Source: a virus
IMG/VR virus record: IMGVR_UViG_3300042013_000045
Coordinates: 108,838 to 172,837 of that record
Strand: one strand, 5' to 3'
Length of the DNA stretch: 64,000 nucleotides
Shown: in pieces, positions 501-63,111 of the stretch
Numbering within the stretch: position 1 is the stretch's first letter
Layout of the letters: each line of letters starts with the position of its first letter
The notes under the pieces: generated by a model
Databases searched by the model: none
The model's input: only the letters and a program-made list of their open reading frames with translations
Told to the model about the DNA's origin: nothing
Translations under genes and position numbers: made by a program

Positions 501-800
501 TCACATGGTTGGACACCGTGACTTGGCTACAGCCAGAAACTCAGCGTGGATGTCAAACAGTTGATCCATGGTGGTAGCGGTTTGTACAGCATCGATGAAG
601 TGACCAGACGAAGCCATGATGTGCGATAGGAGCACACGTACGGCGTCAAACTCATCACCTACTAGCTTTTCCACGGGAGCGGTCTTCCACGTCTCCATGA
701 GGACCCTGAGGGCGTTAGCGTTGCGATACACCTCTAACCACTTACCAGAGTTGCCACGGTCGATGTTGATGCTACTGGTTACTTGAACGACTGGAGTCAT
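501..800 (-). CDS. Hypothetical protein
   Basis: 99 aa, ATGA-coupled to upstream gene. Confidence 0.7.
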   Translation of the reverse strand: MTPVVQVTSSINIDRGNSGKWLEVYRNANALRVLMETWKTAPVEKLVGDEFDAVRVLLSHIMASSGHFIDAVQTATTMDQLFDIHAEFLAVAKSRCPTM

Positions 801-1204
801 GTGCGTTTGCCTTTCCAGCGTTTGCCCCCGAAGAGACGCACGCCGCCGTAGAAGATAGCGCTACGCCAGAGGGCTACCCCCTCGTTACGCAATGCTCGGA
901 AATAGATAGCGTCAGCGTCAGCCCGGTAAATGGTTGCACCGGAATCAGGAAGGCCGCCACCGTAGAGATAATCGTGGATGGTTGCTGCTTTATCCCCATA
1001 CCCTGCCAACAGAGCGTAGATGATAAAGAAGCCAATGTCTCGCAAGGTTTTGATCGAGGCAAAGTCGGTGAAGCTGTTAGCAGGTGCGGTGATCACACCA
1101 TAAACAGCATCGACACAGCTGAACGGTGCCAGCAGCATCTTCTTACGTTTGCCTACGTGACGGGTGTCTAAGTTGCCAAAGACAGATGTATCGGTGTCAG
1201 CCAT
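797..1204 (-). CDS. DUF1353-family protein
   Basis: Motifs FTDFASI, AATIHDYLY, ADAIYFRAL, YGGVRLFG. Confidence 0.8.
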   Translation of the reverse strand: MADTDTSVFGNLDTRHVGKRKKMLLAPFSCVDAVYGVITAPANSFTDFASIKTLRDIGFFIIYALLAGYGDKAATIHDYLYGGGLPDSGATIYRADADAIYFRALRNEGVALWRSAIFYGGVRLFGGKRWKGKRT

Positions 1205-1265
1205 GACAGGTTCCCTAAGAACACAAAAAATAAAGGTACTTCATATCATCACGGCATAAGAAAGG

Positions 1266-2006
1266 AATGGCCCCCACTCATCTAAGACTCTCGATGTATC
1301 CCCTAGCCCTTGGGCTGGTTCAATCATGGAGTCGGTAGTGAGAGGAGGCACATTGATACAGCTCGCATTGCCTAAGGAGGGATGCGATGAGGGACGTCTA
1401 TCCCTTATAAGGCGGAACTTAATCCGTTTTGGCTGTTGTCGGTTCGGCCATGGGCTTACAGGGTCTGGAACCCTGGGCTTGGGGCCGTAGTACTCGTCAT
1501 GCGGCGTGGTAATGTGAACAGTACAACCTGCTGAACGGCGGCCTGTTCGGGCGACTCGAAGGTTTTACCCGGACGATGTCGAACGAACTTGGCGGCAACC
1601 GGGACTGTGTAAAGCGACGCATCGCTATTCACTCCCGTGGGTGCAAGTTGAACATGGCAGGCTTCGGGTTGTTTATACCCGATAGCACCGGCATTACTGA
1701 AGCACATTACTAATCCGCAGACAATTGCGGCGAAGCTCAGTTCAAGGTCCTTAGAGGGATACGTTTTCCCTCGGAGTAGGAGTTCATATTTTGCAATCAC
1801 GTATCAGGCGCCCCCAGACGACCACCTTATGGTCGCGGGGATGCCGTCGCACGGACAGCGTGGTAGGGTTTCGCGGTATCATCGGCACGGCGTGGATGCG
1901 TATCCAATCAGCGCGGAGCGACGCAAGAACTTGCGCCCTCCAAGTGCTGTAGGAAGCCCTAAGCGTCCTAAACACATCACGCAATGCCGAGAACAGAGAC
2001 GGCATT
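1266..2006. ncRNA. Putative large structured RNA or ssDNA element made of ~20 tandem hairpins
   Basis: Consecutive inverted repeats across the whole interval; promoter-like motif at 2045-2073 and TATGCCG end at 1252-1258 on the minus strand. Confidence 0.55.
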
Positions 2007-2044
2007 CAGAACATCCTTTTACAAACTACCGGCAATCTTTTCAT

Positions 2045-2073
2045 CATAGCACATTGATATCATGGAATTATTT
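2045..2073 (-). promoter_or_regulatory. Bipartite promoter-like motif AATTCC-N4-TATCAAT-N4-TATG
   Basis: Same motif and spacing at 33969-33993 upstream of the tRNA/ncRNA operon. Confidence 0.6.
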
Positions 2074-2620
2074 ACCGGCGTTCGAAGTCCAGTTGGTAAA
2101 TGTGACTGAGGAAGTCGTGACCGTGTTCGAGGAGTACTTCGCTTACATTCTCGTTGGACGACATCTTCTTCATCTTTACAATGCGCCCGTTCTGCACAGT
2201 AAGTCTGACATAATAGCCAAACTCTTGCAGGTTAGTGTTCAGGTCGATGGTGTGAGGGCCATGTACTTTCCAATTCGCGCCCTCGAACAAGTTGATACCC
2301 ACACGAGAGACCGTCTCAACCTCAACCGTGGGCACAACTTCAGCCGATAGATGAGACGCTAGTATCACCGCAGCGTACATCTTCGCGTGGATAGCTGCCT
2401 GACCACCAGTGAGGGACATCAGTTCCTCGAGTTCGGCGACTTCGCGCTCCATCTCCAGTTTACGGAACTCTTCGAGAAGCTCCTCCAGTGGTCTCCAGTG
2501 CGTGGTTGTCCAGATACCGTACACTTCACCCTCATCGTCGGTGATGAGCTTTACAGGACGTAGGTTATTGATCACTGGTGGGCTCCCCTTTAGGTCGGAC
2601 AGGTGTAGTTGTGCAATCAC
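2072..2620 (-). CDS. Hypothetical protein (paralogue of 2565..3125)
   Basis: PVKLITDDEGEVYGIW...LEELLEEF vs PVTLKYDPENGVTGIW...IEQMFEEL. Confidence 0.75.
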   Translation of the reverse strand: MIAQLHLSDLKGSPPVINNLRPVKLITDDEGEVYGIWTTTHWRPLEELLEEFRKLEMEREVAELEELMSLTGGQAAIHAKMYAAVILASHLSAEVVPTVEVETVSRVGINLFEGANWKVHGPHTIDLNTNLQEFGYYVRLTVQNGRIVKMKKMSSNENVSEVLLEHGHDFLSHIYQLDFERR

Positions 2621-3125
2621 GTCCTTCGAACAGTTGGTGCATGTCGGTACCGTAAGGAATGATGACCTCTTCGGTCTGTACCCACGCCTGACCGTTCCAC
2701 TTGGACAACCCTACTACCAGTTCACCGTCAAGATGGACTGAGTATCGAGTATCGAGTTCAGGATCTCTGTCATTAAGGATCTCGAACTCGACCGACATTG
2801 TACCGGTCACGCCCCAGTTAGGGTTAGACAGCGGTTCGAAGACTGTCTTACCGATGATCTCAACCACGTGAAGACCGTTCATGGCTTTCGTGTTGACAAC
2901 CAAATGGCGAAGACGACGACTGACTTCCATCATCTTCGCGAAATCTGTATCAGTGCCCATGTACGCACGGATCTTCGCCAGTTCTTCTGCATGACCAAAG
3001 GTTTCCAGTTCCTCAAACATCTGTTCGATGCCTTTCAGTTGGTTCTGATACCAGATGCCGGTCACCCCGTTCTCGGGATCGTACTTCAATGTGACAGGGT
3101 ATTCGCTGTGATAATCATACTGCAT
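2565..3125 (-). CDS. Hypothetical protein (paralogue of 2072..2620)
   Basis: 186 aa, GGAG RBS. Confidence 0.75.
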   Translation of the reverse strand: MQYDYHSEYPVTLKYDPENGVTGIWYQNQLKGIEQMFEELETFGHAEELAKIRAYMGTDTDFAKMMEVSRRLRHLVVNTKAMNGLHVVEIIGKTVFEPLSNPNWGVTGTMSVEFEILNDRDPELDTRYSVHLDGELVVGLSKWNGQAWVQTEEVIIPYGTDMHQLFEGRDCTTTPVRPKGEPTSDQ

Positions 3126-3182: not shown

Positions 3183-3770
3183 TTAAACACAGCCATGGGT
3201 GCGGGCACCGGAATCTTCTTTAGGTTTTGCTATAGAAGCCGTAGGGATGTCCACTGGATACTTCTTGGCGTGAATCTCCTTGACAGTCTTGATGAGTTCC
3301 TCGACGTTGTACCATTTGTATTGTTCAGCCTGGCGGATGTCAGAACGTACCATGAGGTCTTGGATCTCTTCACGGGTCTCGCCGATCAGCATTGCGGCTT
3401 GGCCCTTCTCAGACTGTGACTCACTGCCAGAGTACGCCCAAGAGACACCTTCACCCATTGGCATGGCACGGCAGTACTTCTCGTCATCGTCGCCATTGAG
3501 ACCATTGGTCAAAGTGAACTCCATGTGGAACAGTTCCCCTTCCAATGTCAACAACAACACCTTAGGGAAGGATTGGGTCCCGTCGACACCGGCTTTCTTA
3601 CCGTCCATCCACGGTTTGAGGTTAGTGGCAGCTTGGTTGAGCCAGATCATCAATCCCTTGGAGCAGACCCACCATTCCAGCGGCATAAAGACTTGGGTCA
3701 TGCCAAAGGTGATGATATTGGTGTTGAAGAATAAGTGACCGTCTTTGTAGATAATAGTCTGGGCACTCAT
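3183..3770 (-). CDS. Degenerate Ntn-hydrolase-like paralogue of 3767..4297
   Basis: N-terminus SAQTIIYKDGHLFFNT resembles TTIVYKDGVLASDS but has no exposed N-terminal Thr. Confidence 0.55.
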   Translation of the reverse strand: MSAQTIIYKDGHLFFNTNIITFGMTQVFMPLEWWVCSKGLMIWLNQAATNLKPWMDGKKAGVDGTQSFPKVLLLTLEGELFHMEFTLTNGLNGDDDEKYCRAMPMGEGVSWAYSGSESQSEKGQAAMLIGETREEIQDLMVRSDIRQAEQYKWYNVEELIKTVKEIHAKKYPVDIPTASIAKPKEDSGARTHGCV

Positions 3771-4297
3771 GCTTTAATCTCCTTTGGGAACGCCTTCAGT
3801 TGCGTGTGCTTGATGGAAAGGACTTTGCTTGGGTAAGTGTAGTAGTCGAGCTTAATACCCCACTCAACGGCTTCTATGGCCGTCTTACCGGCCAAGCAGG
3901 CAACCATCGCCGGATCACGGCCCGTACCGATAGTGCTGAACTCATCGCCGATGAGACGAGAGAAGTGCTGAGTATTGTCTCGACGAACGCCACGACTGTA
4001 AGCACAGTCTTTGGTGATGATGATCCAGTCACGACCATCTAAGACATCCGTGATCTCTTTAGGGATCACGGTCGTAGGAGCGAATCCGTCGCGATGGGCC
4101 ATGAAAAAAGCAAGCAGCTTGATTTCAAAGTCCTTGATCCAATCGGGGTCAATGATCGCTCCAGAGATACCGTACGCAAAATGTTTACACGCACTGATAC
4201 GAATCTTGGGGTAGGTACTGATGTAAGCCACCGACGTACCGGTCACAGCGGATGAATCAGAGGCGAGAACGCCGTCTTTATAAACGATCGTAGTCAT
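3767..4297 (-). CDS. Ntn-hydrolase / HslV-proteasome-like peptidase
   Basis: MTTIVYKDGVLASDS N-terminus; IGTG motif; AIEAVE..IKLD.YT. Confidence 0.65.
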   Translation of the reverse strand: MTTIVYKDGVLASDSSAVTGTSVAYISTYPKIRISACKHFAYGISGAIIDPDWIKDFEIKLLAFFMAHRDGFAPTTVIPKEITDVLDGRDWIIITKDCAYSRGVRRDNTQHFSRLIGDEFSTIGTGRDPAMVACLAGKTAIEAVEWGIKLDYYTYPSKVLSIKHTQLKAFPKEIKA

Positions 4298-61628: not shown

Positions 61629-62123
61629 CTACCTCTTAAATGACGCAACAATCGGTGCGTGGCTGGTCTCCAAGTCACCGGCTGGCTGATCTTCGAGGTT
61701 GATGAGGACAGTCTCGTTAAGCAGCTCTTTCTGAGCAGCGGCTTCATTCCGACGTACAGCACCCGGCGGAAGGATGACTTTAGGTAAGACGAACATGTTC
61801 ATCTCTCCCGTGTCCTCAATCATGTTCTTCACCTGATAAGCAAACACCGCACTGATACATTCGTACGGAATCTTCAAGTGATGGTAAAAGCCGTTGAACC
61901 TTGCCGAGAAGTGAATACCATATTCACCCAGCTCGAGGTTCGCAATGAACTGAGGCGCCAGGCAGATGACACAATCATCCCCCGACACCTTCTCGCGGGT
62001 GGCTAACACTCCATCCTTGAGTTGTGCATTGTCGACGACTATGGCTGGTTTATGATTGCGCGCCGCCAGATATTCCAGGGCCGCTCTCAGGTAGAATTTC
62101 GGCCAGAGTATCGGTTCCGACAT
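61629..62123 (-). CDS. Second SspB-like protein lacking the LRVVK tail
   Basis: FYLRAALEYL....KPAIVVD, ICLAP..IANLELG...IHFSARFNG...IPY..I.AVFA. Confidence 0.75.
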   Translation of the reverse strand: MSEPILWPKFYLRAALEYLAARNHKPAIVVDNAQLKDGVLATREKVSGDDCVICLAPQFIANLELGEYGIHFSARFNGFYHHLKIPYECISAVFAYQVKNMIEDTGEMNMFVLPKVILPPGAVRRNEAAAQKELLNETVLINLEDQPAGDLETSHAPIVASFKR

Positions 62124-63111
62124 ACGGATCTCCAGGTATAATCGCTATGCTTTTCTCTTCAGGGTCATACTGTACGAGGAACTTACGTTCATCCGGGATA
62201 CGCAGCGCCAGACAGGCCACCATGTACGGAATCACTTCATGCGGTTGGACGGAACGACGCAGAGGGTACTCTTGGTCGGGACCTTCCACCTGCATGATCG
62301 AGTTGGTACCTTCTTCCGATTGGTTGAACTGGTACCACTCTTCGGCGTACACACCATGTTCATCAGGTGTGCCGGTGTAGATGACAAACTGCCGACCAGA
62401 TTGGACGAAAGGGTCTGCCAAGAGTTCCGCGTGGTACGACCCCAGATCAAGGTCGTAGTTGTTAAACCAGGCTGTGAACGTATCTTCGAAGACTTCATCG
62501 AAGATTTTGTCCGTGTCGTACCACACCCCTACACTACGGTCACGTACTTCGGTAGGTTCGTCAATTTCTTCAGAAGGACACACGAACCGGTTGACTGCGA
62601 TAGTCCCAGTACGGATGTTTGCTTCGCACTGTAAGGCGATGTACTTGCGTTCATCGAGTGCCAGCATCAGTGGCGAGAAGTCAAAGAGGTCGAATTTCAG
62701 ACCGTGGTATCTCGCCAACAGATCGAAGTCCGTACAGAAACTGCGCGGAGACCGGACTGTTAGCAACCAGACCCGGATGAACTCCATCTTCCAGACGCGG
62801 GTGAAACGATCACCCGCGTCTGGATACGAAGTATCGGTCAGTACCTTGCAGAAGTTCAACTTGGTGTTCATGTCACGCTGAATCTTAGGAATCAGCTGTG
62901 CCACGTCACGCAGCGTACGGATGCGGTCAGTGTCACCTTTGACCACACGCAGTACATCGCCCTTCATTGAGTCGTGAATTGTCTTGCTGAGGTCTTGGAG
63001 GACCTTCTCGTCAAGCTTATGGTTCAACACCCCGTTAAGGATGCCGATGTTCTGCAACTGCGACCGAGCGAATTCACCCAGACGCTCTACCAGTGATCTT
63101 TTCATTCTCAC
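62050..63111 (-). CDS. Hypothetical protein
   Basis: 353 aa. Confidence 0.75.
   Translation of the reverse strand: MRMKRSLVERLGEFARSQLQNIGILNGVLNHKLDEKVLQDLSKTIHDSMKGDVLRVVKGDTDRIRTLRDVAQLIPKIQRDMNTKLNFCKVLTDTSYPDAGDRFTRVWKMEFIRVWLLTVRSPRSFCTDFDLLARYHGLKFDLFDFSPLMLALDERKYIALQCEANIRTGTIAVNRFVCPSEEIDEPTEVRDRSVGVWYDTDKIFDEVFEDTFTAWFNNYDLDLGSYHAELLADPFVQSGRQFVIYTGTPDEHGVYAEEWYQFNQSEEGTNSIMQVEGPDQEYPLRRSVQPHEVIPYMVACLALRIPDERKFLVQYDPEEKSIAIIPGDPYVGTDTLAEILPESGPGISGGAQS

Follow-up and report, generated by a model that had tools for sequence, protein, structure and literature searches.

The last 64 kb of the 172.8-kb IMG/VR virus record IMGVR_UViG_3300042013_000045, a record that is ~65% complete, were analysed as a single stretch of DNA (hereafter the window). 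A conserved module lies on its minus strand, between positions ~2050 and 1265. The module is conserved among diverged relatives, its stems covary, the minus strand is preferred, two frames are kept open behind ribosome-binding sites (RBSs) and the region is present in RNA libraries. With a probability of about 0.6, it represents a gene-sense RNA of ~0.8 kb, dominated by structure and bicistronic or dual-function, with at least 16 maintained hairpins (H1-H16) and two small open reading frames (ORF-A and ORF-B). The module would belong to a clade of Pseudomonas-type jumbo phages resembling phage pPa_SNUABM_DT01 (hereafter DT01).

The evidence for a maintained fold is comparative. About seven diverged lineages carry the same syntenic module, namely the window group (L002 and L013-L020), L021, L022, L024, L028-L033 and L034/L035. 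They come from soil, rhizosphere/plant, peat and wastewater assemblies and share 49-71% nucleotide identity across the module. The sense consensus fold of seven lineages (alifold) reaches -124.2 kcal/mol, compared with -39.6 ± 5.5 kcal/mol for column shuffles (z = -15.5). In 57 of its 150 consensus pairs, both partners have changed while remaining paired; the shuffles give 14.2 ± 3.5 such pairs, with a maximum of 21. Compensatory substitutions therefore exceed the null model, the generic mark of a structured RNA. For the same five lineages, the module gives z-scores of -12.5 for energy and 6.9 for covariation, and a control alignment of coding sequence from these genomes, equal in length, gives -5.0 and 2.4. 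The 16 hairpins recur in most diverged lineages with their stems partly or wholly replaced (e.g. GCTGTC/GACGGC versus GTCGTC/GACGAC versus GCTGCGT/ACGCAGT), and the loops AUAAGG of H5, UUAAGU of H13 and CCCUCCUUAGG of H15 are invariant. For close relatives, alifold also proposed long-range helices, one joining the 5' and 3' ends and one joining H6 to H14; neither holds up in the diverged lineages, where the support is for local hairpins instead. An earlier note, made from the letters of the window only, had singled out the region as a run of back-to-back hairpins, and this view withstands the comparison of homologues, in which compensatory changes are abundant, also inside both ORFs.

Hairpins inside the ORFs are held more firmly than the peptides they encode. 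H12 is invariant at 19 of 19 nucleotides (nt) in most lineages, at ~59% overall identity. Where it changes, in L034, CAGGGU/ACCCUG becomes CAAGGU/AUCUUG by paired substitutions, and the peptide motif PGFQTL becomes PRFWIL. Similarly, H10 goes from AGCGA/UCGCU to GGCGU/ACGCC in L028, again paired, with the peptide changing from NSDASLY to NGVVTPY. A 22-nt exact match to H12 at L025:3866-3887, the sole metagenome match to its 19-mer, is attributed to chance; it is located at the gmk-rpoZ junction of a high-GC bacterium. The proportion of synonymous differences (pS) is 0.08-0.22 in the ORFs and 0.30-0.56 in the flanking genes, i.e. 2-4 times lower. Since the ORF hairpins stay paired despite radical amino-acid changes, RNA structure is the stronger constraint. 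Collectively, these substitution patterns indicate the RNA fold as the primary target of selection.

Folding of the window's own sequence is also dense, as the earlier note had perceived: the 20 hairpins that it listed all fold on the + strand (-1.1 to -34.2 kcal/mol), and the gap between the two flanking genes beats dinucleotide shuffles on both strands, with minimum free energies of -320.5 kcal/mol (z = -5.98) on the + strand and -313.4 kcal/mol (z = -3.80) on the minus strand. On both strands, z ranges from -1.3 to -3.6 over all 200-nt segments of 1301-2100. Diverged homologues folded in the sense direction against their own shuffles give z of -2.6 (L021), -5.2 (L024) and -3.4 (L028). The claim that coding regions hold no comparable density is correct for the flanks, where coding windows scatter around 0, but is overstated for the genome, since a coding stretch at about 62050-63111 outscores the region. 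This stretch, a 353-amino-acid minus-strand ORF, is the most stable run of seven windows in the whole record when folding is corrected for composition (mean z -1.9).

Strand preference emerges from the comparison of lineages. The suggestion that the complement of the transcript folds better applies, slightly, to the single window sequence, in which the + strand leads by the energies given above and by the hairpin sum (-181 versus -168 kcal/mol). Across lineages, the minus strand wins. The comparative energy is -124.2 kcal/mol in sense and -99.5 kcal/mol in antisense, and the 150 sense pairs (57 covarying) compare with 107 in antisense (32 covarying). Among pairs predicted on both strands, 20 are G.U in the sense direction and 10 in antisense. 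The RBSs, the ORFs, the terminator-like rod and the TATGCCG motif all have minus sense. Thus, the minus-strand transcript that the earlier note deduced from flanking motifs is backed by comparative energy, pairs, wobbles and flanking signals alike. Its other candidates fare less well. An antisense RNA or other functional + strand fold loses in energy, pairs, covariation and wobbles. A reverse-transcription template would call for a reverse transcriptase, and PF00078 has no match in the 172.8-kb record, although control genomes do match; with a record ~65% complete, absence of the enzyme is not proven. Finally, an origin structured as single-stranded DNA (ssDNA) finds neither repeats nor origin-like features in the region.

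The two ORFs bear signs of being genes to different degrees, ORF-A in its open frame, RBS and start codon, ORF-B also in its indels and substitutions. Upstream of ORF-A, AAAAGGA is located 8-10 nt before the ATG across lineages (CTAAGGA in L024), and its frame has no stop in any lineage, compared with 2-7 in the other frames. The predicted product is an amphipathic helix with a basic tail: AlphaFold places a helix at residues 4-38 (predicted local distance difference test, pLDDT, 82-91), followed by a disordered basic tail. ORF-B satisfies what is expected of a protein-coding gene in its open frame, RBS with start codon, indels and substitution pattern, with a weak signal. It measures 94-105 amino acids among lineages and lacks stops in all of them, with 3-17 in other frames. 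All alignment indels within it are multiples of 3. Its frame-0 BLOSUM score is the best in nine of ten lineage pairs, and the ratio of non-synonymous to synonymous differences (pN/pS) is 0.2-0.5 in frame 0 and 1.2-1.7 in the others. Every lineage retains CTAAGG, with a start codon 5-7 nt downstream that is TTG in L021 and L024, ATG in L022, L028 and L034, and CTG in the window group. The H6 stem that precedes it reads GTAGGC/GCCTAC, GAGGG/CCCTC or GAGGGG/CTCCTC elsewhere. Homologues of ORF-B are detected at the protein level (P0002, P0008, P0009 and P0012-P0017). The lineages have in common a hydrophobic N-terminus, AAI(V/I)CG, then three L/M/V residues and C(F/Y), which is kept via the non-identical codons TTA, CTA, ATG and CTN and contains an invariant Gly9 encoded by GGA, GGT, GGC and GGG. 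This N-terminus is like a signal peptide or a membrane anchor. ORF-B was rejected by inspection as a lipoprotein or o-spanin, its Cys residues having no lipobox.

In the proposed mechanism, the RNA fold would gate translation of both ORFs and stabilize the RNA. Ribosomes translating ORF-A would melt H1-H6. In L014, L020 and L021, the UAA in CTAAGGA doubles as the ORF-A stop codon, and in such lineages termination of ORF-A inside the RBS of ORF-B could couple initiation of ORF-B to translation of ORF-A. From the 3' side, the H15 loop UCCUUAG resembles an anti-Shine-Dalgarno sequence, is perfectly complementary to CUAAGGA in most lineages, and may sequester the RBS of ORF-B. Together, the UAA shared in three lineages, the abutment of H6 on the RBS and the complementarity of the H15 loop suggest a structure-gated, coupled translation, and the RNA might in addition act in trans.

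Sequence signals lie at both borders of the module (Table 1). At its 5' border, GTGCTATG at 2052-2045 contains an extended -10-like TGnTATG box, kept as TG(C/A)TATG in four diverged lineages; by its sequence, this could be an extended -10 of a candidate promoter. At the other end, a non-coding part of ~200 nt overall closes in the rod hairpin H16 and the TATGCCG end signal. Stems of the 3' domain covary, with CGCAT/ATGCG replaced by CGTGC/GCACG and GGGAT/ATCCC by AGAGG/TCTCT. H16 is kept with a different sequence in every lineage that covers it (L022 stops short) and is a probable 3'-end or terminator structure. Its downstream motif is not confined to the module. Genome-wide, ~20 GC-rich hairpins are followed by YTATGCCG(Y) in gene direction and without a U tract, in the window at 469, 1258, 4323, 8137, 17252, 24078, 27379, 30294 and 44331. 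Outside the window, at genome positions 34128/34156, one hairpin between convergent genes has the motif on both sides. Occurrence in gene direction, and in both directions between convergent genes, indicates that the motif marks ends rather than starts of transcripts, and hairpin plus YTATGCCG appears to be a terminator, or an RNA 3'-end signal, specific to the phage.

Table 1. Features of the module and its borders (window coordinates; minus-strand features with paired ends are given 5' to 3' where so ordered)
Feature	Position	Strand	Remarks
Gap holding the module	1205-2071		867 nt, between the DUF1353 gene (797-1204) and a paralogue gene (2072-2620)
5' boundary of conservation	2044-2075	minus	from the upstream gene's stop codon onward; all lineages
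Shine-Dalgarno of ORF-A, AAGGA	2014-2018	minus	8 nt before ATG
ORF-A	1784-2005	minus	73 amino acids here, 58-84 in relatives
H1-H5	2007-1982, 1972-1947, 1943-1913, 1862-1841, 1840-1810	minus	tile ORF-A; kept with compensatory changes
H6 GAGGGA/TCCCTC, then CTAAGGA	1748-1775	minus	CTAAGGA (1754-1748) is the Shine-Dalgarno of ORF-B
ORF-B	1456-1740	minus	94 amino acids from CTG 1740 or 83 from ATG 1707; stop 1458-1456
H7-H12	1732-1713, 1694-1654, 1644-1595 (holding 1628-1611), 1575-1555, 1478-1456	minus	tile ORF-B
Non-coding 3' domain	1359-1455	minus	holds the module's most conserved nucleotides (overall identity ~59%)
H13 CGGA-UUAAGU-UCCG	1429-1411	minus	
H14 GGGAU-AGNC-AUCCC	1407-1388	minus	
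H15	1389-1361	minus	loop CCCUCCUUAGG at 1381-1371, complementary to the Shine-Dalgarno of ORF-B
H16, irregular rod hairpin	1264-1354	minus	~90 nt, -37 kcal/mol
TTATGCCG	1251-1258	minus	directly after the rod; invariant in 9 of 9 aligned sequences

The region, in whole or in part, is present in 13 studies, and at least one soil metatranscriptome seems to be rich in the module. There, a contig of 853 nt (X17) spans 1272-2075 at a depth of 32.6, about eight times that of most neighbouring contigs (2.7-4.8, save one from a neighbouring gene at 38.6), and an Illumina adaptor is joined to it at 1272, at the foot of the rod. In a second soil RNA run only 1571-1704 is present. Another run (X12) has the whole block on one contig, compatible with DNA as well as with a polycistronic RNA. 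Where the RNA runs leave the window uncovered, they are uninformative.

Relatives were reached by an indirect route. None of 50,697 phage records matched the region in blastn, and a search for related loci with the upstream 182-amino-acid protein gave no relatives. One contig with the gap at 90% identity (flanking genes 81-86%) was reached through the flanking DUF1353 protein; the translation of the inner ORF, searched as a protein, led to near-identical and later to distant matches, whose contigs yielded the lineages. The assemblies with the module are many, and the 105-amino-acid variant of ORF-B alone occurs in 92 indexed blocks of the contig collection. More distant DUF1353 loci (L003-L011) were discarded as carriers, the module not being found there. 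Neighbours of the module differ, L021 and L028 having no DUF1353 gene and L002 missing one upstream paralogue. Identity blocks around it form a mosaic, a mark of recombination, in the comparison of window positions 797-1204 with L020, L002 and L021. Identity of L020 with the window is 96.6% in DUF1353 but just 87% in the ORF-A part. Mosaic identity and changing neighbours together indicate a module inherited as a separate unit.

Surrounding genes are small and lie on the minus strand. The genes directly upstream of the module, 2072-2620 (182 amino acids) and 2565-3125 (186 amino acids), both on the minus strand, are tandem distant paralogues (26% identity, E 3e-8). In relatives, their position is occupied by one copy, two copies or other genes; with copy number and identity differing in this way, the site directly upstream of the module is variable. 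Further upstream, a minus-strand gene at 3767-4297 encodes an HslV-family peptidase (PHROG 1040, E 6e-16) and is followed by an overlapping gene of 195 amino acids (the pair spans 3183-4297). The same pair is annotated in DT01.

DT01 itself, a Pseudomonas aeruginosa phage of 265 kb, is the closest cultured phage by a conserved 643-amino-acid DUF8224 protein (37% identity). DT01-like jumbo phages also infect Pseudomonas fluorescens in compost, and the host of one of them, JPTI55, is P. fluorescens SBW25 (bioRxiv 10.1101/2024.08.29.610337). A covariance model of the 3' domain (R1), which finds this domain in L022 and L024 (G005), matched none of four related jumbo phages with complete genomes (254-270 kb), and its score at the DT01 gap that is syntenic with the module is only 14.8 bits (E 0.08). 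The DT01 sequence after the HslV pair is a stretch of ~1 kb (L023:15876-16889, record positions 249787-250800) with one annotated coding sequence of 77 amino acids and a second, unannotated ORF of 100 amino acids with a hydrophobic N-terminus. Its hairpins include some with the loops AUAAGG and UUAAGU, a CCUUAG element is also present, and the layout is like that of the module. This stretch may be a very diverged counterpart, a weak candidate. Given the 14.8 bits of R1, the absence of a match of the module profile to the syntenic region in nhmmer and the negative hhalign comparison of the DT01 ORFs with ORF-A and ORF-B, membership of DT01 is a lead rather than a finding.

Several observations weigh against a bicistronic or dual-function RNA. 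ORF-A shows no coding-type pattern: its pN/pS is 0.55-1.06, pN being close to pS, its variable sites are spread as 13/14/15 over the three codon positions, and its amino-acid conservation in frame 0 is not above that in frame +2. Third positions of ORF-B are nearly as conserved as first positions (0.53 versus 0.55), the start codon beside its RBS is CTG in the window's own lineage, and AlphaFold gives it no confident fold (pLDDT 48). Neither ORF has a relative in Pfam, PHROGs or ESM-Atlas, as the earlier note had sensed in recognizing no family for them; they are nevertheless not noise, each being open in every lineage behind an RBS. Pairing of the H15 loop with the RBS is invariant, carries no covariation support and is absent in L024. 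As a recurrent promoter GTGCTATG was rejected, with just one other site in the genome, and a simple sigma-70 scan of the minus strand of the module found no match. The RNA evidence consists of assembled contigs without strand, in which DNA carry-over is possible; as such contigs carry neither strand nor proof of transcription, the expression data are treated as a hint. In a composition-corrected scan of the minus strand of the genome, other stretches are more structured than the region (its mean over seven windows ranks 64 of 1721, in the top ~4%).

These observations bear on how much the peptides matter. According to one explanation, the module is a large, purely non-coding RNA, with frames that are untranslated and remain open, e.g. 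as stops are disfavoured in stems, and AAGGA sequences that are structural or protein-binding. It would account for the missing coding-type pattern of ORF-A, the missing confident fold of ORF-B and the radical changes in peptide motifs where pairing is kept. Real genes have codon-usage scores of 0.45 ± 0.21; those of ORF-A (-0.09) and ORF-B (0.15, at the 5th percentile) are likewise low, and in DT01 the AUAAGG, UUAAGU and CCUUAG loop motifs seem to persist beside dissimilar ORF products. The earlier note had a large non-coding RNA among its candidates, and a long conserved folded RNA does exist; its being purely non-coding is another matter. Frame 0 has no stops in five of five diverged lineages for both ORFs, against 2-17 in the other sense frames, and an RBS stands properly spaced before a start codon in each lineage. 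ORF-B adds indels that preserve its frame, a hydrophobic N-terminus conserved via non-identical codons and a low pN/pS confined to frame 0. Open frames, AAGGA sites and the frame-preserving indels and weak coding pattern of ORF-B thus make a purely non-coding RNA unlikely. Somewhat less doubtful, but tentative, is an explanation in which ornate phage RNAs of ~0.8 kb form a new class, with the module as its first member. The folded RNA would then be the main selected product and the peptides secondary, the frames staying open chiefly to let translation remodel or protect the RNA. Such an RNA might be a scaffold, a decoy or sponge, or an element mimicking the ribosome or 16S rRNA. The exposed UAAGG loops fit the last idea, together with the CCUCCUUA loop, which we take to resemble the 3' end of 16S rRNA. 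As a sponge for RsmA/CsrA the RNA is unlikely by inspection, the GGA motifs being mostly within stems.

The opposite explanation, two ordinary small protein genes whose RNA is just the message and whose folding is incidental or a mere tuning of mRNA stability, is improbable. Gene callers do annotate ORF-A and ORF-B in most assemblies, each has an RBS and an open frame, and some coding stretches of the genome fold better by a crude composition-corrected measure. Ordinary genes would, however, leave unexplained a covariation far beyond the coding control of the same genomes, a synonymous rate 2-4 times below that of neighbouring genes, an H12 whose 19 of 19 nt are invariant and whose changes are paired substitutions that wreck the peptide motif, and ~200 nt of non-coding 3' sequence with the most conserved nucleotides of the module. 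Least probable is a functional molecule made of the + strand or of ssDNA, be it an antisense RNA, a structured origin or a reverse-transcription template. The slightly better + strand fold of the single sequence (z -6.0 versus -3.8) agrees with it; comparative energy, number of pairs, covariation, the 20 to 10 wobble count, the minus sense of RBSs, ORFs, rod and TATGCCG motif, the absence of a reverse transcriptase from the ~65%-complete record and the lack of visible repeats or origin-like features argue against it. The structured RNA with two small ORFs thus remains the reading preferred here. It offers a natural case of selection on RNA structure overriding selection on protein sequence within open reading frames, and it bears on the annotation of small phage genes and of 'intergenic' gaps. 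Cultured Pseudomonas relatives (DT01 and JPTI55) would make the question of RNA versus peptide testable if they carry the module, which is weakly indicated for DT01.

Comparison with known systems places the module between several of them. An Rfam 15 search yielded no family: the whole window gave only six tRNAs at the gathering threshold, and the region 1000-2400, searched at E up to 10, gave two chance matches to small nucleolar RNAs (15.6 and 10.5 bits). Large conserved structured RNAs are rare and, to our knowledge, almost none come from jumbo phages; nor do we know of an RNA in which two small conserved ORFs accompany ~16 covarying hairpins. Like GOLLD, ROOL, OLE and HEARO, the module measures hundreds of nt, has many covarying hairpins and resides in a phage genome with a tRNA cluster elsewhere (six tRNAs at 30.9-33.9 kb of the window). 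It differs from them by having no Rfam match and by its two conserved ORFs with RBSs, which those RNAs lack. Retrons and diversity-generating retroelements are defined by a reverse transcriptase gene, for which the ~65%-complete record of 172.8 kb has no PF00078 match. In hok/sok type I toxin mRNAs, an upstream frame, mok, controls the downstream protein, and a 3' element folds back and silences translation. The module would similarly be a compact, stable folded mRNA with an upstream frame and a downstream protein with a hydrophobic N-terminus. Unlike hok/sok, ORF-B has 94-105 amino acids instead of <60, the two ORFs are sequential and not overlapping, the 5'-3' fold-back is weakly predicted, and neither an antisense RNA nor an antisense promoter was found, promoter-like sites of the + strand occurring only at the module edges (1203-1231 and 2018-2047). 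In the single-stranded RNA phages MS2 and Qbeta, coding sequence is tiled with conserved hairpins, cistrons are coupled by structure and synonymous sites are constrained. The module shares the hairpin-tiled coding sequence, the structural constraint on synonymous sites and, in the proposed mechanism, the coupling of cistrons, but it would be a transcript of a double-stranded DNA jumbo phage, without replicase, coat and maturation genes. Finally, bacteria possess dual-function RNAs that are both coding and structured regulators, such as RNAIII/hld of Staphylococcus aureus and SgrS/SgrT. Unlike these, the module is ~800 nt long, phage-encoded and unrelated in sequence, and its two ORFs of 60-105 amino acids cover ~60% of it. 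Like them, it would be a discrete and abundant multi-hairpin RNA with small ORFs behind an RBS and with a structure conserved beyond the needs of the peptide.

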